NCBI RefSeq assembly: GCF_016756745.1
Contig: NZ_JAESIH010000059.1
Span: 2,149 to 66,148, forward strand
DNA length: 64,000 nucleotides
Source of the DNA: Aminivibrio sp.
GTDB lineage: Bacteria; Synergistota; Synergistia; Synergistales; Aminobacteriaceae
Direction: 5' to 3'
Shown: positions 8,830 through 18,117 of the stretch, piece after piece
How the letters are laid out: the number at the start of each line of letters is the position of its first letter
Numbering within the stretch: position 1 is the first letter of the stretch
Made by a program: the position numbers and the translations under genes
The notes under the pieces: model-generated
The model's database searches: none
Seen by the model: the letters and a program-made list of their open reading frames with translations, nothing else
Told to the model about the DNA's origin: nothing

Positions 8830-9096
8830 TCCATCCGCACCCTCGGCCCGGAGGGCATACGGGAAGTGTGGGAGATGACGGCACTGAACGCCGATTGCCC
8901 GGCGAAAAGGCTCAGCTCCATCTACCCCGGCGTCCGCATCATGGGACCGGAAGCGGCGGCCGGGACCAGGGCAAGCCGCTCTCGCAGTCTCCCGAAACTC
9001 ACCGCCGGGGACGCGGCCCTCTCGGTCCACGCTCACCCGACCCTGTGCGAATGCTTCCGGGACGCCTGCCTGCGCGTTCTGGAGAAGGAGAAATAG
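8830..9096 (+). pseudogene. Relic of dihydrolipoamide dehydrogenase-like C-terminal dimerisation domain
   Basis: GVRIMGPEA...LSVHAHPTLCECFRDA resembles the GVHIxGP..HAHPTLxE motif; no N-terminal domains. Confidence 0.6.
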
Positions 9097-9108
9097 GCGG
9101 CAGGCCTA

Positions 9109-9516
9109 CTACCGCTCGTCGATCACCGGCTTGATATCCGCCACGGGCGTGCCGTCCAGGGCCTCCAGGGGAGCTACCCGGAGACGGGCGCCCTCCCTCC
9201 CCAGCAGGGTCACCCTGTGAAGGCCGATGGGGTTGGGCCTTGCGGAGGACCGGGTCGCGAACACCCCCTTCAGGGGCGCCCCGGGGTTCCTCCTGGGATG
9301 CACCTTCAGCACTGACCTGTCCGCAAGGTGCAGCCAGGTCAGAACCAGCAGTTCCCGTCCCGCCTCCAGGCCGTCCAGCCCTTCCAGAAAGGCAGGAAAA
9401 ATCTCGATCTCCGCTTCCGGCGCGTCCTCAAATCCCTGCCTCGGGCAATCCTCCTGCCTTTTCAGGGACGAATGAACCCTTCCTATGGCCTGTACCCTCA
9501 TGTCAGCGCATTTCAC
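9109..9516 (-). CDS. tsaA: TsaA/TrmO (YaeB-like) SAM-binding tRNA methyltransferase family, short form
   Basis: IGRVHS, GVFATRSSARPNPIGL, LDGTPVADIKP. Confidence 0.85.
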   Translation of the reverse strand: MKCADMRVQAIGRVHSSLKRQEDCPRQGFEDAPEAEIEIFPAFLEGLDGLEAGRELLVLTWLHLADRSVLKVHPRRNPGAPLKGVFATRSSARPNPIGLHRVTLLGREGARLRVAPLEALDGTPVADIKPVIDER

Positions 9517-9731
9517 ATTCCAGACCTCCTCCGCATCCTGGAAAAAACTCCCTCCGGCGTGATCTGTCCCGCCGGCTCAACACCATTTTATAGCAGTTAT
9601 TTGATCAGTATACATCAAATCTTTCGTCCTCTTTTGCATGAACTGACCGTTTCAAGCAGGCTTCGTCATGATGTACAATGCCGGTGAAAGAAACGAAACT
9701 CCACAAATACCCTTCAAGGAGGCACCAGGAA

Positions 9732-10907
9732 ATGAAAGCAATACTCGCAGGAGCCCTCGAAACCGGGCTCGGAACCGTACTGTCCGGCGTGACCGTTTTC
9801 ATTGAAAACGGCAAAATCGCCGATATCGCCGAAGGACTCGACCCGAAAAACGCAGACGAGGTCATGGACGCATCGGAAATGGTGGTCACCCCCGGGCTCA
9901 TCGACGCCCATACCCATATCGGCACCTACTGCGAAGGCTTCCCCGAGAGCATGGCAGACACCAACGACATGGTGAACCCAGTGGTTCCCCACCTCCGGAT
10001 CCTGGACGCCATCTACCAGGACGACACGGCCTTCGCCGACGCCCTCGCCGGAGGAGTCACCTGCGTCCAGACCCTGCCCGGGAGCGGCAACGTCATCGGC
10101 GGCCAGGGGGCCATCATCAAAACCGCCACCGCGGCCGCCGGGCGCAGGAAAACGGTGGACGAAATGGTGGTGAAGGCCCCCTCCTCCATGAAGGCCGCCC
10201 TCGGAGAGAACCCCATCAGGGTGTACAAGGACAAGCAGAAGCTCCCCAACACCCGCATGGGCAACGCCGCCCTGCTCCGACAGGCCTTCGTGGAGGCGGA
10301 AAACTACAGGAACAAGATGATCCAGGCCAGGAACAAAAACGAGATGACTGAACGAAACCTGCAGCACGAAGCGATCCTCCCGGTGCTCGACGGGGACCTT
10401 TCCCTCTGCGTCCACGCCCACCGCTGCGACGACATCGCCACGGCGGTCCGCATCGCGGGAGAGTTCTCCATCCCCTTCACCGTGGAGCACTGCACGGAAG
10501 GGCACCTCATCGCCCCCTTCCTGGCGGAGAAGAACGTTTTCGCCGCCGTGGGCCCCACCCTTACCGGCAAGCCGAAGCTCGAACTGCGGAACAAGACGTG
10601 GGACACCCCCTTCGCTCTCTGGAAGGCCGGAGTCCACTTCTGCATCATCACCGACCATCCCGTGGTGCCCATCGAGCACCTCTCCGTCTGCCTCTCCCTG
10701 GCGGTGCGGGCCGGGCTGCCCCGGGAGGAGGCCATCAAGGCGGCGACCATCTACGCCGCGGAGCACCTGGGCATAGCGGACCGGGTGGGGTCCGTCGAAA
10801 AGGGGAAAGACGCGGATCTGGTGATCTGGGACGGCGATCCCCTTGATGCCCGGAGCAGGGCCGTGGCGACGATCATCGACGGAGAGACCGTCTACTCGAG
10901 ATGCTGA
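9732..10907 (+). CDS. Metal-dependent amidohydrolase family protein
   Basis: TPGLIDAHTHIG, VHAHRCDD, IITDHP, GSVEKGKDADLVIWDGDP; AAGGAGG RBS before 9732. Confidence 0.88.
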   Translation: MKAILAGALETGLGTVLSGVTVFIENGKIADIAEGLDPKNADEVMDASEMVVTPGLIDAHTHIGTYCEGFPESMADTNDMVNPVVPHLRILDAIYQDDTAFADALAGGVTCVQTLPGSGNVIGGQGAIIKTATAAAGRRKTVDEMVVKAPSSMKAALGENPIRVYKDKQKLPNTRMGNAALLRQAFVEAENYRNKMIQARNKNEMTERNLQHEAILPVLDGDLSLCVHAHRCDDIATAVRIAGEFSIPFTVEHCTEGHLIAPFLAEKNVFAAVGPTLTGKPKLELRNKTWDTPFALWKAGVHFCIITDHPVVPIEHLSVCLSLAVRAGLPREEAIKAATIYAAEHLGIADRVGSVEKGKDADLVIWDGDPLDARSRAVATIIDGETVYSRC

Positions 10908-10953
10908 ATTGACCCCGGGCAGAGTTCGCCCCCCGGAAGAGGAGGAATGCGGG

Positions 10954-11286
10954 TTGGATACGGTCCACTTCATCACCATCACGGGGATCGACCACTACTA
11001 CGGCAAGACCCCCACGACCCCGAGGCCATCCGGGTGGAACTGCCGGTCATCGGCACCATCGGCTACGTGGCGAACAGCACGAACACCGTCTACCGGGGAA
11101 CGGCCAGTGCGGGGCGCATCTACGACAAGATCGGGGATTACGCTTTTTGCCAGGATCTTTTTCGTCACCCATTCCAGTGCCATTGCTCCCGTCCTCTCGC
11201 CGGACGAGGTGGAGGAAATCGACGCAGGAAAGAAGGTCATCTTCATCGTGAACGACGAGGAGGCCCCCCCGGGGGACGACGCTTAG
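10954..11286 (+). pseudogene. HIRAN-domain protein disrupted by an internal deletion and frameshifts
   Basis: FITITGIDHYYGKTP (frame 1), HDPEAIRVELPVIGTIGYVANSTNTVYRGTASAGRIYDKIGDYAF (frame 2), IFFVTHSSAIA (frame 1). Confidence 0.7.
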
Positions 11287-11322
11287 ATCCGGGACGGGAA
11301 CGTCCGAAGAACCCAAATAAAA

Positions 11323-11365
11323 AACGGGCTTTCTCTTCCGCACCCTGCGGAAGAGAAAGCCCGTT
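11323..11365. terminator. Bidirectional terminator with a 20-bp perfect stem
   Basis: AACGGGCTTTCTCTTCCGCA-CCC-TGCGGAAGAGAAAGCCCGTT between convergent genes. Confidence 0.8.
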
Positions 11366-11379
11366 CCGTTCTTCCGTTT

Positions 11380-12654
11380 TCAGCCCCTGGGAGGAACCGG
11401 GACCGTGAGACTTCCCTCGGGCAGAACCAGATACGAGAGGTCCTTTCCCCTTTCCTGTTCTATGAGCCTCAGGGCCTCCTCCACCGACGACACTTTCACG
11501 GCGAAGAGCTTTTTCACCTCCGCCTCGCCCATGGACGTGACCATGTAGACCGTCTTCTCCGCAGCGACCTTGGCGAAGCCGAAGGCCTTGTGCCCCCCCA
11601 TTTTGAAATCGGTCCGGATTCGCCTGACGATATCCTCCGGGCAGGACGCGGCGTTCATCCACTCCTCGAATACGGCCTCGCCGAACCCTTCGGGGCAGTC
11701 GGCCACGAGCACGATGGCACCGCCCTTTTTCGTGGCCTTGTCGGCGTGGTCGAGGGCCTTTTGTGCCTGGTACATGTTGATGTCCCGGGGGTGCCCGCAG
11801 GCGCCGGCGACGGCCACGTCCGCGAGCCCCTTCACCGGAACCTCGTACAGGCTCGCCGAGACGGCAACGGCCTCCCTCCACGCTGCCGCTACGTCACCGG
11901 CCGCGACTTTCACCACGTCCTTCTTCTCGTTGACCACCACGTTGAGGATAAAATCCACCCCCACCATCTGCGCCGCCTCGATCATCTCGAGGTTCACCGG
12001 GTTCGAGTCTAGGTCCGGGAGGGCATCCATGAGTTCCACCATCCGGGAATGGTTTCGCTCCACCGTCTCCTTCCACGCCACTCCTGGCAGGATGGACTTC
12101 CGCCCGCCCGAGTAGCCCGCGAAATAATGGGGCATGACCACTCCCAGGGTGAGGACGAAATCCGCTTCAGCCACCAACCTGTTGATCTTCAGCTCCGTTC
12201 CCGTGGAGAGGGTTCCGATGGAGACGAGGCTATCAAGGTTGTCGGCAGCGTGGGAGACGATCCGGAACCGCCGGACGATCTCCTCGCCATACACCTGGAG
12301 GTTCTGCTCGTCGGTGTGGGGGTCGTGGATGCCCGTGGCCACGAGAAGGGTGACCATGTCGTCGGTGATCCCCGCCCGGGCAAAGCGGGCGAGCACCGGC
12401 GGAAGCAGAAGGTCGTAGGGGGTGGGCCGTGTAATGTCGTTCACCACAAGGACGATCTTCCGGGGCTTTTTCCTCTGCAGAAGGTCAAGGAGGGGAGGCG
12501 TCCCCACGGGGTTGTCGAGCGCACCATCCACATCCCGCAGGGTGCAGGGCTTCAGGTTCATCTCCGGCGGCAGAACCACCTGGAGGATCCTGGAATCCTC
12601 GAGGGTGAACGCCTCGGTCCCCCTGCCTCTTTTCAGCTGAAAATCCATCTCCAT
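11380..12654 (-). CDS. larA: LarA-family nickel-pincer-dependent 2-hydroxyacid racemase/epimerase
   Basis: VNDITRP, ATGIH, PHYFAGYSGGRKSILPG, RNH, YQAQKAL motifs. Confidence 0.85.
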   Translation of the reverse strand: MEMDFQLKRGRGTEAFTLEDSRILQVVLPPEMNLKPCTLRDVDGALDNPVGTPPLLDLLQRKKPRKIVLVVNDITRPTPYDLLLPPVLARFARAGITDDMVTLLVATGIHDPHTDEQNLQVYGEEIVRRFRIVSHAADNLDSLVSIGTLSTGTELKINRLVAEADFVLTLGVVMPHYFAGYSGGRKSILPGVAWKETVERNHSRMVELMDALPDLDSNPVNLEMIEAAQMVGVDFILNVVVNEKKDVVKVAAGDVAAAWREAVAVSASLYEVPVKGLADVAVAGACGHPRDINMYQAQKALDHADKATKKGGAIVLVADCPEGFGEAVFEEWMNAASCPEDIVRRIRTDFKMGGHKAFGFAKVAAEKTVYMVTSMGEAEVKKLFAVKVSSVEEALRLIEQERGKDLSYLVLPEGSLTVPVPPRG

Positions 12655-12660
12655 TCCCCC

Positions 12661-13401
12661 TTACCTGATCCGGAGAACCGAACCCCCGGTCTCCGCTTCT
12701 TCCAGCATCGGCACGGAGCGGGACACGTCGGTCTCCGCCGCGCAGACAAGATCCCCTTCAAATCCCAGGGCCAGAATCCGCCGACCATGGACGGACCGCC
12801 TGAGAATGGCCGCCATGTCCCGTCCGCCTGACCGCCATATGTCCAGCGCCATGACCGCCCCGTCCTGAAGTTCGGCGTCGCAGCGCCGCAGAAGAAGTTC
12901 CACGAGCAATCCGGCGCAGGCCGTGTCGTCCAGGGCGACCCGTCCGTGGAGGCCGGCGCAGAGAATACCCACCGACTCTCCATCCTTCAGGGAGGCATCG
13001 AGGGCCGCAGAGGCATTCCGGGCGCAGACCGGCCGCACCGGTTTTCCGGAAGCGGCCGCCTTCAGGAGGGCCCTCGTTCCGTTGGTGGTAGCCATCACGG
13101 CCTCCGGCCGCCTGGAGGGACCGTATTCCAACAACTCCAGGGGAGAATTCCCCAAGTCGAACCCGACGGGAGGAAGGGCGTTCCGCTCCCCCATCAGGAA
13201 GGGGTTCCGGCCTTCCGCCGCCAGCCGGTCCCGCAGGAGAAAGGCTTCCTCGACGGATCGGCAGGGGCGGAGAATTTCCCCCCCTCCGTCGAAGAAGACG
13301 CACATGGTGGTTGTAGCCCGAAGAATATCGATCACCAGCCAGCTGTCCGCCTCCGGAAGAATCTCCTCCGGCGAAAGGACCACGTCCGCTTTCACAGTCA
13401 T
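12661..13401 (-). CDS. comB: 2-phosphosulfolactate phosphatase family
   Basis: VIDILRATTT, GERNA, DLGNSP, MATTNGT, DDTACAG. Confidence 0.85.
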   Translation of the reverse strand: MTVKADVVLSPEEILPEADSWLVIDILRATTTMCVFFDGGGEILRPCRSVEEAFLLRDRLAAEGRNPFLMGERNALPPVGFDLGNSPLELLEYGPSRRPEAVMATTNGTRALLKAAASGKPVRPVCARNASAALDASLKDGESVGILCAGLHGRVALDDTACAGLLVELLLRRCDAELQDGAVMALDIWRSGGRDMAAILRRSVHGRRILALGFEGDLVCAAETDVSRSVPMLEEAETGGSVLRIR

Positions 13402-14138
13402 GGCTTGGCCGCGTACTTTTTCGCTTCCTCCACGAGACGGAGGAACAGGGGAAGCATCTCATCCCCTTCGGACATCATCATCTCGGGGTGCCACTGGACC
13501 CCCGCCACGAAGGGCTCCCCCTCCATCTCGAGAGATTCCACCACGCCGTCCATGGCCCGGGACGTGACCTTCAGCCCCCGTCCCACGTCCTTCACCGCCT
13601 GATGATGGTAGCTGTTCACCGGAAAGCTGGTTCCCAGGAGCTCGGCGATCACCGATCCCTCCTCGGCCACCACCGTATGGCTCGGGCAGGAGCGTTTCCG
13701 GTTCTGGGAATGTTTCACGAAAGAATCGGGAATTTCGGAGAGATCCTGGTAGATGGTGCCCCCGCAAGCCACGTTCAGGAGCTGGATCCCCTTGCAGATG
13801 GCCAGAACGGGCTGCCCCTTCGCCAGGGCCGTCTTTATGGTGCGGAGCTGGGAAATGTCCGTGTCCCGGTAGACGAACTCCAAGCCCTTGTGAGGCTCTT
13901 CGCCGTACAGCAGGGGATCGATGTCATACCCTCCCGAAACGAGAAGGGCATCGACGCACTCCGTCTGCTCCTCGGCCACATCCTGCCCCCTCACCACGGG
14001 AATTATGAGGGGAATGCCCCCGGCGCGCTCCACGGCGGCCACATAGTCGTTGTTCACGTAGCTTCGCTCTATGCCGGGGGAGAAGCCCCCCTGCTCCACG
14101 AGAAGGTTCCCCACAATACCGATCACCGGTCGGCCCAT
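13398..14138 (-). CDS. Gamma-glutamyl-GABA hydrolase / peptidase C26 (class I glutamine amidotransferase-like)
   Basis: LLVSGGYDIDP, LAICKGIQ, NSYHHQAV, GVQWHPE; start MGRPVIG at 14138. Confidence 0.88.
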   Translation of the reverse strand: MGRPVIGIVGNLLVEQGGFSPGIERSYVNNDYVAAVERAGGIPLIIPVVRGQDVAEEQTECVDALLVSGGYDIDPLLYGEEPHKGLEFVYRDTDISQLRTIKTALAKGQPVLAICKGIQLLNVACGGTIYQDLSEIPDSFVKHSQNRKRSCPSHTVVAEEGSVIAELLGTSFPVNSYHHQAVKDVGRGLKVTSRAMDGVVESLEMEGEPFVAGVQWHPEMMMSEGDEMLPLFLRLVEEAKKYAAKP

Positions 14139-14374
14139 GCTTATTTCCTCCTGTCGTACGGATCGGCGGATTTCCGCCTGTTCCAAGTATAGCGCGGGAG
14201 GTGCCTTTTTCAAGTTGACAGCCTGGGGAGGGAGGAGAATAATACCCCCCATGGCCGGGGGAGAACGGGCCGGATACAGCCCTGAGAAGCCCCCGCCGGA
14301 GGAGAGTTGCCGCCATCAAACCCATTCTGTCGTCCTTTACCCTGATCGCCTCGGGCCTGCTGCTCGGGTACGGG

Positions 14375-15289
14375 ATGCGCCGTCTTTTCGAAAAGGTTTT
14401 CCCTGGTCCCGACGAGCTGCTCGGCCGTATCCGGTACTTCCTGCAGCGTCTTGTGCTGCTTGGCCTGGGGCCCGTGACCTTCATCGGCGCACTCTGGATC
14501 GTGGAGATCCGGGAGCCGAAAATCGCCCTTCTTGCCCTCATAGGGGCCTTCTGTCACATCTTCGGCGGTGCTGCTGCGGCGGCGGCGGCCCGGTTGTTCC
14601 ACATGGCCCCGCCCCAGGCCGGAGCCTTCTTCTGCTGCGGCTTCTTCACCAACGTGGGGGCCATCGGGGGGCTGGTGATCTTCCTGTTTCTGGGAGAGGA
14701 AGGCTACGCCATGTTGCCCCTCTTCAAGCTCCTGGAGGAACTCGTCTATTACAGCATCGGCTTCCCCGTCGCCCGGCTCTACGGCACAGATAGAAAGACG
14801 GCGGCGGAAGGCAGCCTTCTCCCCCGCCTTCTCCGGGATCCATTTCTCAGGGTGGCCGTCTGCGGACTGCTCCTCGGAACCGCTCTCAACCTGTCGGGCA
14901 TTCCAAGGCCTGCGGCCTACGCTTCCCTGAACAGGCTGCTCATACCCCTCAGCACGGTGCTCCTCCTCGCCTCCATCGGCATGGCCATGAAGTTCGGGAA
15001 GACAGCTTTCTGGCTGAAGGAGGGGCTCGCCCTCATCACCCTGAAATTTCTCCTCGTCCCCGCCGTCTGCGTCTCTCTCGGCGCCCTGGCCGGCCTTGGC
15101 GGCATTGCCGATGGACTGCCGCTGAAGGCCGTCCTCGTCCTTTCCTCCATGCCGGTCGCTTTCAACGCCCTCGTCCCCCCGTCCCTGTACGGACTGGATC
15201 TGGACCTGGCGAACAGCTGCTTTCTCATCTCGGTACTCGGGCTCGCAGCGCTGCTGCCGGTCCTGCATTTTGTCCTCGGGCTGATGTAG
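14375..15289 (+). CDS. AEC (auxin efflux carrier/malate permease) family transporter
   Basis: Multi-TM protein; FTNVGAIG, SSMPVAFNALV; an in-frame TM segment continues upstream to ~14306 without a canonical start, so the start is uncertain. Confidence 0.75.
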   Translation: MRRLFEKVFPGPDELLGRIRYFLQRLVLLGLGPVTFIGALWIVEIREPKIALLALIGAFCHIFGGAAAAAAARLFHMAPPQAGAFFCCGFFTNVGAIGGLVIFLFLGEEGYAMLPLFKLLEELVYYSIGFPVARLYGTDRKTAAEGSLLPRLLRDPFLRVAVCGLLLGTALNLSGIPRPAAYASLNRLLIPLSTVLLLASIGMAMKFGKTAFWLKEGLALITLKFLLVPAVCVSLGALAGLGGIADGLPLKAVLVLSSMPVAFNALVPPSLYGLDLDLANSCFLISVLGLAALLPVLHFVLGLM

Positions 15290-15299
15290 GGCGGCTCCA

Positions 15300-15835
15300 T
15301 CTCCCTCCACCCTGCGGTTTTTCGCCCGCTCCTCCTCAGCCTCTGGGGCATCTCCTCCGACGTGACCACCGTCATTTTGGCCTCCATGGGCTTCGTCTCC
15401 ACTATGGGATAATGCCTGTCCCGGCCGTACAGCGTTTCGGCGAAGCCGTTGTAGGGGCCGAGCCCGTCCTTCGCGCCGGAGAAGAGAATCTCGCAGTCCT
15501 TTTCCTTCAGATCTTCATCGTAGTTCCGGAACACCTCGAGGGCGATCCGTCCCGCCGGGGCGACGTACAGAAGCCGCGTGGGGCTGCCCTCCGCCTTCTC
15601 AGAGGCGGTGAAGGCATAGCGCGGCCGTCCCGGCAGACCGTCTTCCCCAGGGAATGACCATTCCGTCGTACTCCTTCGCCGAATACCGGACGACGAAGGT
15701 CCCTCGTACCGGCGGCGGAGGGGCGAATCTTTGCCGCCCTTCAGGTCGGCCCCGAAAAACAACCTGCACCGAGAGAACCGCCAGAAACACGGCAGCGAAA
15801 TTCCGCCCTTTGGAGGCCATGAACCCCCTCTCCAT
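15300..15835 (-). pseudogene. Probable frameshifted exported hypothetical protein
   Basis: Signal-like MASKGRNFAAVFLAVLSVQVVF, then a shift at a T5 tract into FGADLKGG...YNGFAETLYG; C-terminus runs antisense into the AEC gene. Confidence 0.4.
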
Positions 15836-16016
15836 TGTTTCAGAATTATCTGTCATATTGTATCACGGCTTTGCGGAAAGCATTTCACTGCCGGTTTTCC
15901 CTCGCAAAAACATTTCTCCGTGGCACTCTTTTCTTCGGAAAAATCTACCAGGGTCACTTTTTTGTTGAAAAACGGAATTTAAGGGTATACTAATAGGATA
16001 TTCATTCGACAGGCAG

Positions 16017-17750
16017 GTGCAGACCGTCATGAAAGGAATCGGGGCCTCTCCGGGCATAGCCATTGGCAGGGTAGTCATTCACTGGAAAGAACAGATCGAC
16101 ATCCTTCGGGAGTTTGTCGAGGAGCCGGAGCGGGAGCTCGAACGGTTTCAGACGGCCCTCGAGTTTGCCGGAGAGCAGATCAGGGAGACCTACTCCAGGG
16201 TACTTGAAAGCGTCGGTCCCGGCGAGGCGGACATCTTCAGGTCCCACGGCATGATGCTGAAGGACCCCGATTTCGTGGGGCAGATCGAGCGCATGATCCT
16301 CGACGAGAACGTCAACGCCGAATGGGCGGTGAAGCAGGTGGCCGACAGCCTCATCCAGATTTTCGAGAGCATGGGCAACGACTATATGAAGGCCCGCTCC
16401 GACGACGTGAAGGATATCTCCGACCGGGTTATCAAGCTGCTCCTCCAGATCGGCGGGATCGACCTCTCGAACCTCAGGGAGCCTTCCATAATAGTGGCGA
16501 GAGAACTCACCCCCACGGACATCTCCCAGATGGACAGAGAGATGACCCTCGGCATGGTGTCGGAAACGGGAGGAAAGACCTCCCACACGGCCATTCTCGC
16601 CAGGACCCTCGAAATTCCTGCCGTCATGGGGGTAAAGAAGCTGCTGGACGAGGTGGAAAACGACGACCTTATGATCATCGACGGTGAAACGGGACAGGTC
16701 TTCGTGAACCCCGACGGAGAGACGGTAGAGCGTTACCGGGAACGGCTGGACCGGTACGAATGCTTCAGGAAAAGCCTCTCTGAAGTGCGGGGGATGAAAA
16801 CCGTCACCCTTGACGGCCTGGAGATCGAGCTCGAGGCCAACGTGGCCTCTCCGAAAGATCTGGACGACGTCTTCAAGAACAACGGGGATGGCATCGGACT
16901 CTACAGGACCGAATTTCTCTATTTCGACAGTTCCCTCCTCCCTCCCGAGGACATCCAGTTCGAGCAGTACAGGATCGTGGTGGAGGCCATGAAGGGAAAG
17001 CCGGTGGTCATCAGGACCCTCGACATAGGAGGGGACAAGAAGCTGGACTACCTCTCCATTCCCGAAGAGCAGAACCCCTTCCTGGGCTACCGGGCCATCA
17101 GGCTCTGCCTTGACCGCCAGGAAATATTCAAGGTCCAGCTCAGGGCTATCCTCAGGGCCAGCGCCTTCGGTCATGTCCGCATCCTCTTTCCCATGATCTC
17201 GAGCCTCGGGGAGCTCCGCTCCGCAAAAGCCATCCTTGAGGAGACAAAAGAAGATCTCCGATCCCAGGGCGTACCCTTCGACGAATCCGTCCAGTCGGGC
17301 ATCATGGTGGAGGTGCCATCGGCGGCCATCCTCTCCGACCACTTCGCCCGGGAAACGGACTTTTTCAGCATCGGGACCAACGACCTCATCCAGTATGTCG
17401 TGGCGGTGGACCGGGGGAACGAAAAGCTTTCCCATCTCTACTCCCAGTACCACCCGGCGGTGCTCCGGCTTATAAAAACAGTCATCGACAACGGAAAGGC
17501 CGCGGGAATTCAGGTCGGGATGTGCGGCGAATCCGCCGGAGACCCGAAACTCATCCCCATCCTCCTCGGCATGGGGCTCACGGAATTCAGCATGAACCCC
17601 TCGTCCATCCTCCAGGCACGGTGGATCCTCCGGAACCTCCGGAAGAGCGACCTGGAGGAGGCGGCCCTGAAGACCCTGTCGCTGGCCACGGCCGAAGAAG
17701 TAGAGGAATACTGCTCAGAGCTGCTCCAGTCTCTTAACCTCTGCCGCTGA
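16017..17750 (+). CDS. ptsI: PTS enzyme I, phosphoenolpyruvate-protein phosphotransferase
   Basis: GIGASPGIAIG, SHTAILAR phospho-His, GIGLYRTEF, FSIGTNDL, GMCGE. Confidence 0.95.
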   Translation: MQTVMKGIGASPGIAIGRVVIHWKEQIDILREFVEEPERELERFQTALEFAGEQIRETYSRVLESVGPGEADIFRSHGMMLKDPDFVGQIERMILDENVNAEWAVKQVADSLIQIFESMGNDYMKARSDDVKDISDRVIKLLLQIGGIDLSNLREPSIIVARELTPTDISQMDREMTLGMVSETGGKTSHTAILARTLEIPAVMGVKKLLDEVENDDLMIIDGETGQVFVNPDGETVERYRERLDRYECFRKSLSEVRGMKTVTLDGLEIELEANVASPKDLDDVFKNNGDGIGLYRTEFLYFDSSLLPPEDIQFEQYRIVVEAMKGKPVVIRTLDIGGDKKLDYLSIPEEQNPFLGYRAIRLCLDRQEIFKVQLRAILRASAFGHVRILFPMISSLGELRSAKAILEETKEDLRSQGVPFDESVQSGIMVEVPSAAILSDHFARETDFFSIGTNDLIQYVVAVDRGNEKLSHLYSQYHPAVLRLIKTVIDNGKAAGIQVGMCGESAGDPKLIPILLGMGLTEFSMNPSSILQARWILRNLRKSDLEEAALKTLSLATAEEVEEYCSELLQSLNLCR

Positions 17751-17775
17751 AGGAAAAGGGGACTTCCCCTTCCGG

Positions 17776-18117
17776 ATGGATTATAATAAGTCCATGAACG
17801 ATGTCGTCCTTACTGACCGGGAACATCCGCCCTTGCCCGAGATGCTGCGCCCCCTCTTCTGGGACGCGGAATGGACGGCTGTGGATTTTGACAGGAACAG
17901 GACGGCGGTGATTGAACGGATTCTGAACCTCGGGAACGAAGAACAACTTGCCTGGCTCCGCCGGAATGTCTCGCTGGACGAAATCCGCGCCGTGGTATCC
18001 TCGAGCAGGCGGCTCAGCAGAAAGACGGCCCGGTGCTGGCAGAACTTTTTCGGGCTCAGGGAGGAGGAAATGCGGTGTTTTGGGATGTTCTCGACAAACC
18101 CAGACAATCTCTTCTGA
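17776..18117 (+). CDS. DUF6922-type small protein, putative antitoxin
   Basis: LFWDAEW...VIERILNLGN pattern; overlaps the downstream nucleotidyltransferase; start uncertain. Confidence 0.7.
   Translation: MDYNKSMNDVVLTDREHPPLPEMLRPLFWDAEWTAVDFDRNRTAVIERILNLGNEEQLAWLRRNVSLDEIRAVVSSSRRLSRKTARCWQNFFGLREEEMRCFGMFSTNPDNLF

Follow-up and report, generated by a model that had tools for sequence, protein, structure and literature searches.

How is a LarA homologue to be read when its gene lies directly behind a ComB-family gene and a gene for a glutamine amidotransferase-like hydrolase, with a divergent AEC transporter gene on their far side? The arrangement is found at positions 11380-15289 of a 64,000-nucleotide stretch of DNA from Aminivibrio sp. 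(assembly GCF_016756745.1, contig NZ_JAESIH010000059.1), the whole of which is called the window here. In a first-pass annotation, made from the letters alone, the locus had been taken as a possible new pathway, where a phosphatase and a racemase act in sequence on a non-lactate hydroxyacid. Judged by its sequence, the LarA homologue is a new member of an already described family, the nickel-cofactor malate racemases, with malate as the predicted substrate. It is fairly probable, in our judgement, that a LarAH6/Mar2-type malate racemase, dependent on the nickel-pincer nucleotide (NPN), is encoded here in a young, lineage-specific operon, its co-transcription with the C26 hydrolase gene and ComB being recent and opportunistic.

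Identity and predicted substrate of the LarA homologue

The protein is composed of a Lar_N and a LarA_C domain. It scores 524.8 bits against the NCBIfam equivalog model NF052593 ("nickel-dependent malate racemase, LarAH6 family"), above the cut-off of 500, while the sister models LarAH5 (368 bits), LarAH10 (356 bits) and LarA (325.9 bits, cut-off 460) all stay below their own cut-offs. The last score speaks against a plain lactate racemase, which the first-pass annotation had named as one of the outcomes that would refute its proposal. The best match among solved structures is Mar2 of Thermoanaerobacterium thermosaccharolyticum (PDB 6D6Z/7S91, E 4e-86).

Alignment to Mar2 and LarA, read with the residue list given by Desguin et al. 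(PMC7583248), shows that both the NPN-binding residues R76, K186 and H202 (R75, K184 and H200 in LarA) and the catalytic residues D73, H110, H176 and K299 (D72, H108, H174 and K298 in LarA) are present; further aligned residues are Y177, F178, Q298, H355 and K356. The loop at 350-356 reads F-K-M-G-G-H-K, and its H355-K356 align with W358-T359 of LarA. A "GHK motif" was described as the signature of the malate groups in 2020 (PMC7583248); in the rule published in 2024 (PMC11770544), malate racemases are marked by H or Q plus K at the LarA W358/T359 positions, while the pair of loop positions that follows the second catalytic His varies. The window protein carries the H/Q plus K signature. What had been noticed from the letters alone, namely that the cofactor-binding residues are kept and that the C-terminal loop reads MGGHKA rather than DQW, is thus confirmed, the loop turning out to be the published malate-racemase signature; the suggested non-lactate 2-hydroxyacid, with malate as one example, agrees with the LarAH6 score and with H355-K356, which predict it.

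The pair following the second catalytic His is Y177-F178 in the window protein and Y172-K173 in Mar2. All of the 120 closest database homologues (52-100% identity), whose named sources include Aminivibrio, Thermovirgaceae, Desulfovibrio and spirochaetes, have HYF together with G-G/A-H-K, where Mar2 has HYK/GAHK. The HYF/GGHK proteins are, on these residues, a coherent subfamily, to be added to the described malate racemases as predicted members. Every named public record of such proteins (P0290, P0294, P0302 and others) is labelled "nickel-dependent lactate racemase" or "hypothetical"; the current NCBIfam model would name them malate racemase instead, and a common mis-annotation would be corrected.

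By analogy with LarA and Mar2, Lys186 would carry the nickel-pincer nucleotide and His202 would sit on the nickel. His110 and His176 would shuttle the proton, a hydride passing from C2 of malate to the cofactor and being returned to the opposite face, and His355 and Lys356 would hold the distal carboxylate. The cofactor would be made by the products of the unlinked larB, larC and larE genes, and the L-malate produced may be passed on to the malic enzymes or the fumarase of the genome.

The genes required by this scheme are present. When the genome was searched with models, larB, larC and larE were found above their own cut-offs on contigs C76, C84 and C59, respectively, and malic enzymes and a class-I fumarase are also encoded. 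None of larB, larC and larE has a match on the window's contig: their absence from the window had been correctly noted, and the search for them elsewhere in the genome, suggested at the same time, has located all three. The window gene is one of several of its superfamily. A true lactate racemase (637 bits, HFF/DQWQ) is encoded on C63, a "group 22" NPN isomerase on C39 and an unclassified LarA-superfamily protein on C43; altogether at least six further LarA-superfamily genes are found, on contigs C63, C39, C43, C93, C94, C96 and C55 (loci L006-L013), some of them cut by contig ends. Those on C93 and C94 are near-duplicate N-terminal halves, both cut in this way. A literature search on Aminivibrio with malate yielded nothing relevant.

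The locus and its counterparts in related genomes

The open reading frames (ORFs) of the window agree with those described earlier, and the families of the LarA homologue, the ComB-family protein and the C26/GATase protein were confirmed by Pfam and NCBIfam, that of the AEC protein being supported by the protein atlas next to a Pfam match just under the cut-off. The features of the locus are the following.

11380-12654, minus strand: LarAH6/Mar2-type malate racemase homologue, 424 amino acids, last gene of the operon (NF052593, PDB match, residues)
12661-13401, minus strand: ComB-family (PF04029) homologue, predicted Mg-dependent 2-phospho-hydroxyacid phosphatase, 246 amino acids (Pfam)
13398-14138, ORF open to 14252, minus strand: Peptidase C26 / class-I glutamine amidotransferase-like gamma-glutamyl hydrolase, 246 amino acids, first gene of the operon (PF07722)
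14375-15289, plus strand: AEC-family (Mem_trans) transporter, divergent (Pfam near cut-off, protein atlas)
14186-14213, minus strand: sigma-70-like promoter TTGAAA-16-TATACT, candidate for the C26-ComB-racemase operon (consensus match only)
14215-14243, plus strand: sigma-70-like promoter TTGACA-17-AATAAT, 11/12, candidate for the AEC gene (pattern match)
11322-11366, minus strand: putative intrinsic terminator, 20-bp stem and T-run, 14 nt past the racemase stop (pattern match)
9678-10907, plus strand: uncharacterised amidohydrolase, convergent on the operon (family search; structural relative 3OOQ)
10843-11286, plus strand: small HIRAN-domain gene, probable remnant (alignment with relatives)

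The C26, ComB and racemase genes lie head to tail: the stop of C26 and the start of ComB overlap by 4 bp in ATGA, and the ComB stop is followed, after a gap of 6 nt, by the ATG of the racemase, as read directly from the sequence. From the promoter at 14186-14213 to the terminator at 11322-11366 the three genes have the appearance of a single transcription unit, and would then be co-transcribed. The tight coupling and the divergent AEC gene are as first described.

Relatives were compared in a sample of 100 genomes from 20 genera, all of the window's family, where G000 is the window's genome and g1 its genus. ComB is present in 91 of them, essentially in single copy, and most of these genomes are without this racemase. 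Racemase orthologues of at least 77% identity occur only in the Aminivibrio-like genus g1 and in G048. Where both flanks are readable, the racemase has ComB, or a ComB remnant, on one side and the amidohydrolase gene on the other. The order C26-ComB-racemase, convergent on the amidohydrolase, is found in G000, G002, G022, G056 and G065; G059 and G062 feature ComB-racemase without C26, as far as contig breaks allow, with fragments across the breaks. In G052, in G046 and on contig C116 of G065 the racemase runs in the opposite direction, behind the amidohydrolase and the small HIRAN gene, the contig of G065 ending before ComB could be seen, while in G048 it converges with C26-ComB. The ComB gene of G046 (L148:4616-5026) suffers from an internal deletion of about 280 nt, leaving residues 1-54 and 182-230, with flanking C26 and racemase genes intact. 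The overlapping C26-ComB pair is found without the racemase in genera g8, g14 and g18, and in g18 it directly faces the amidohydrolase gene. Finally, G005, a complete genome with no ComB match, contains an HYF/GGHK homologue (49% identity), clustered on one strand with genes for TRAP DctPQM, an Iso_dh-family protein, a D-2-hydroxyacid dehydrogenase, an HMGL-like protein, a GntR regulator and an FAA-hydrolase; this context, of the C4-dicarboxylate type, resembles the published neighbours of group 6.

Because the racemase is restricted to one genus and G048, occurs in both orientations, stands beside a broken ComB in G046 and has a homologue in the ComB-less G005, the operon appears to be young and lineage-specific. 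The comB-larA neighbourhood, whose conservation had been proposed as a check, is confined to g1 and G048, in two orientations, and is not conserved more widely.

From the gene orders among relatives a sequence of events can be inferred. The older state would be a translationally coupled C26-ComB pair facing an amidohydrolase gene. The racemase gene would have been inserted at this convergent junction in the Aminivibrio-like genus, and a local inversion would then have set it behind ComB in the window's lineage and behind amidohydrolase-HIRAN in the sister species. In this scenario the locus would show a single gene switching between two convergent operons by local inversion, and the sharing of a transcript with ComB and C26 would most probably be a matter of opportunity, with a loose functional link at most, rather than the sign of a set route from phosphatase to racemase.

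The HIRAN gene at the junction is intact in L144 (3541-3918), where it encodes 126 amino acids matching PF08797, and also in G052 and G046. The window copy, which begins with TTG instead of the ATG of its relatives, has a 49-nt deletion and a compensating 1-nt insertion and is probably a pseudogene. Its scrambled state fits a rearrangement at the window junction, without being proof of one. The candidate "orf153" (10947-11408) was rejected as a gene, being a wrong-frame reading across the scrambled HIRAN gene and the terminator.

As to the first gene of the operon, the C26 protein has a full-length Peptidase_C26 domain (PF07722, E 2.9e-66) and keeps both the Cys, in ICKG, and the H-P-E motif. 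Of the label "PuuD-like", given at first, membership in the C26 family stands, while the PuuD level does not: the PuuD equivalog model yields 115.3 bits, with a cut-off of 266, placing the protein in the wider family only. Its closest structure is Lin1909 (3FIJ), a protein without assigned function, followed by PuuD. Relatives align to the long C26 ORF from about residue 35 only, AGGAGG precedes the ATG at 14138, and the promoter-like site (14213 to 14186) falls inside the longer ORF; the gene most likely starts, therefore, at ATG 14138 and not at 14252.

The ComB-family protein matches PF04029 over residues 19-235 (E 2.7e-55) and keeps the family-invariant D25, R28, E72, N85, P87, G108, D159 and D217. 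All NCBIfam ComB equivalog models stay below their cut-offs (best 148.8 vs 332 bits; TIGR00298 84.6 vs 175), and the nearest solved relatives (2Z0J, 2YYV, 1VR0) are titled only "probable" or "putative". The protein, encoded by the sole copy in its genome, belongs to a large bacterial PF04029 branch without assigned substrate. Literature searches on PF04029/COG2045 and on phosphomalate returned nothing relevant.

Across the divergent promoter region, the AEC protein scores 25.3 bits against PF03547 over 236 residues, with a gathering score of 25.7; its nearest clusters in the protein atlas are all AEC (score 0.97). The AEC gene is also found beside C26-ComB in genomes without the racemase (loci L020 and L021). 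The operon and AEC promoters stand back to back (14186-14243), with their -35 boxes only about 2 nt apart, and may constitute a shared control region. An Rfam search of positions 9000-18000 found no RNA element.

Alternative explanations

Several observations weigh against the reading of a malate racemase in an opportunistic operon. The NF052593 score is only 25 bits over the cut-off. Phe178 replaces Lys173 of Mar2, HYF being common to all 120 closest homologues, and 2-hydroxyglutarate racemases, too, have Y-F-H as the first three residues of their signature (PMC11770544), so that the preferred substrate could be another dicarboxylic hydroxyacid. The operon promoter and terminator are pattern matches only. 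As many as seven of the orthologues of at least 77% identity stand beside an intact ComB (G000, G002, G022, G056, contig C4 of G065, G048 and G052), with that of G046 beside a ComB remnant, and ComB is linked to larC in 13 other genera: these adjacency patterns, together with the ComB-larC link, could reflect a real functional tie.

The first alternative concerns the substrate: the LarA homologue would act on another acidic 2-hydroxyacid, such as tartrate, 2-hydroxyglutarate or 2-hydroxysuccinamate, and be linked to C26 and the amidohydrolase as amide hydrolases. The departure of the whole HYF/GGHK set from the HYK/GAHK of Mar2 would suit it, as would the fit of Y, F and H to the 2-hydroxyglutarate-racemase rule at three of the four positions (PMC11770544) and the position of the gene behind the amidohydrolase in the sister species. 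Tartrate and 2-hydroxysuccinamate were, moreover, raised as alternatives for Mar1 by Desguin et al. (PMC7583248), and characterised malate racemases also epimerise tartrate. The fourth signature residue, however, is not Thr, but Lys, the marker of malate racemases; the score is above the cut-off of the NF052593 equivalog; and the G005 homologue lies among TRAP, Iso_dh-family and FAA-hydrolase genes, in the C4-dicarboxylate-type company published for group 6. This alternative is held to be unlikely.

The second retains the phosphatase-racemase sequence originally proposed: ComB would dephosphorylate a 2-phospho-hydroxyacid, for instance 2-phosphomalate, the racemase would invert the product, and C26 and the AEC transporter would belong to the same route. 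In its favour, the genes are tightly coupled in the window's lineage, between one promoter and one terminator, and the racemase adjoins ComB, or its remnant, wherever both flanks are readable. ComB of M. jannaschii, according to work ascribed to Graham et al. in 2001, reportedly also hydrolyses 2-phospholactate and 2-phosphomalate in vitro. Most of the 91 family genomes with ComB, however, do without the racemase; the racemase runs opposite to ComB in G052, G046 and G048, and the ComB of G046 is broken; C26 is missing in G059 and G062; and G005 has its homologue in a genome without any ComB match. No kinase or ComA-like enzyme making a phosphoester is encoded at the locus, and a search for ComA (PF02679) in the whole genome, estimated to be 100% complete, gave no match, in line with the absence of comA from the window noted earlier.

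None of 70 ComB loci from other phyla, found with a 21-sequence ComB alignment sharing GFDLGNSP, has a LarA homologue within 6 kb, and COG2045 (ComB) is absent from the supplementary files, Table S1 included, of a published context survey of 354 LarA-superfamily proteins. A new pathway of phosphatase and racemase is not supported by these comparisons, and is regarded as quite unlikely. Its sulfolactate version was rejected, sulfolactate being an unlikely substrate in a genome where the search for ComA gave no match.

The third alternative starts from ComB rather than from the racemase. A comparison of coordinates places ComB immediately before larC (PF01969), and in the same direction, in 63 of the 92 genomes that have ComB, the 63 coming from 13 genera; the two ORFs overlap by as much as 4 nt or stand up to 131 nt apart. 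Behind larC there is often a DUF4230 gene, while upstream flanks vary (for example L045:8544-10786 in G009, and 62 other family genomes). At the C-terminus, ComB proteins linked to larC extend into a basic tail, which is poorly conserved and contains no domain. G110 (L150) belongs to a different family of the order. Its ComB is preceded, at a distance of 1.6 kb and in the same direction, by larE-larB-larC1; two ORFs are found between larC1 and ComB, the one next to ComB having a DUF2179-type domain.

In one clade ComB is away from larC (the window's genome, with larC at L046:4318-5592, and G002, G022, G018, G048 and G063). LarC of this clade matches Pfam only from about position 38 (residue 74 of 424), which points to a changed or extended N-terminus. 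In another genus, represented by G038 (L030:412-3694), ComB is found neither beside larC nor beside C26, being part of a tight CorA-ComB-Sir2 arrangement.

These data raise the idea that the orphan ComB of the Synergistales is functionally tied to the nickel-pincer system, either processing the cofactor or its precursors, or supplying 2-hydroxyacids to NPN enzymes. Such a tie is rather unlikely; if true, it would provide the first physiological role for the large bacterial PF04029 branch. The recurring placement of ComB near nickel-pincer genes in the Synergistales offers a cheap, testable hypothesis for an orphan family, and is the only part of this analysis possibly of wider weight.

Applied to the window, the same idea would give ComB an accessory or salvage role towards the cofactor, or make it a general supplier of NPN enzymes, and the racemase adjacency a variant of the larC adjacency. 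The recurrence of the ComB-larC order with varying upstream flanks, the gene cluster of G110 and, in the window's genus, the NPN-dependent racemase adjoining ComB instead of larC would all be consistent with it. Yet the conserved block includes the unrelated DUF4230 gene, and may represent synteny inherited from a single event. No ComB-larC adjacency is found in about 38 genomes with ComB that were sampled from 12 further families of the phylum, G110 alone showing proximity, and none of the 70 loci of other phyla has larA, larB, larC or larE within 6 kb: their commonest ComB neighbours are biotin carboxylase (accC), GcvT and FtsK, with ComA at one locus only. Two complete genomes, G104 and G112, have ComB and neither larC nor a LarA homologue; G005 and G024, conversely, have larC and LarA homologues and no ComB. 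Long ComB fusions involve DUF4202 or DNA-glycosylase domains, never Lar proteins, and a literature search on ComB with LarC or the nickel-pincer system found no paper linking the two. As an account of the window's operon this explanation is very unlikely.

The fusions deserve a separate mention. In other phyla, 13 clusters join a ComB domain to DUF4202, and one case each joins it to an HhH-GPD and to an OGG_N DNA-glycosylase domain; the long fusions, when searched, contained no Lar or C26 partner domains. One fusion protein, P0249, has an N-terminal domain unrelated to C26, with no solved relative.

Comparison with known systems

With the ComB 2-phosphosulfolactate phosphatases, known from the coenzyme M pathway of methanogens and, as YitC, from Bacillus subtilis, the window ComB shares the full-length PF04029 domain and the family-invariant residues. 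It differs in lying below every ComB equivalog cut-off, and in a genome context without a ComA match.

The C26 protein has the full-length Peptidase_C26 domain and the Cys and His-Pro-Glu motifs in common with PuuD, the gamma-glutamyl-GABA hydrolase, and with related gamma-glutamyl-amine hydrolases of the C26 family. Unlike PuuD, it remains below the PuuD equivalog level, and the nearest structure is the uncharacterised Lin1909. Its translational coupling to ComB is, as far as we know, not a feature of the puu or pau clusters.

The racemase belongs to the same superfamily as LarA of Lactiplantibacillus plantarum, with the same Lar_N/LarA_C fold domains and, as predicted, the same cofactor, whose larB, larC and larE genes are present in the window's genome. 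The substrate pockets differ, H-K in the window protein standing against W-T/E/Q, and the LarA model gives 326 with a cut-off of 460. Unlike the larA-E operon of L. plantarum, the window racemase gene is unlinked to the biosynthetic genes, and the genome has its own true LarA elsewhere.

The closest known system is that of Mar2 and the LarAH6 group (PDB 6D6Z, 7S91; PMC7583248). The homology is full-length, and includes the NPN-binding Arg, Lys and His, both catalytic His residues, Q-K of helix 11 and the G-x-H-K loop. Identity amounts to roughly one half of the aligned residues, and the window protein has Y-F, where Mar2 has Y-K, after the second catalytic His. The genomic contexts are also different: malic enzyme, FAA-hydrolase-family and FAD-dehydrogenase genes accompany group 6 in the published survey, while in the window's genus the predicted malate racemase is found with C26-ComB or with amidohydrolase-HIRAN.

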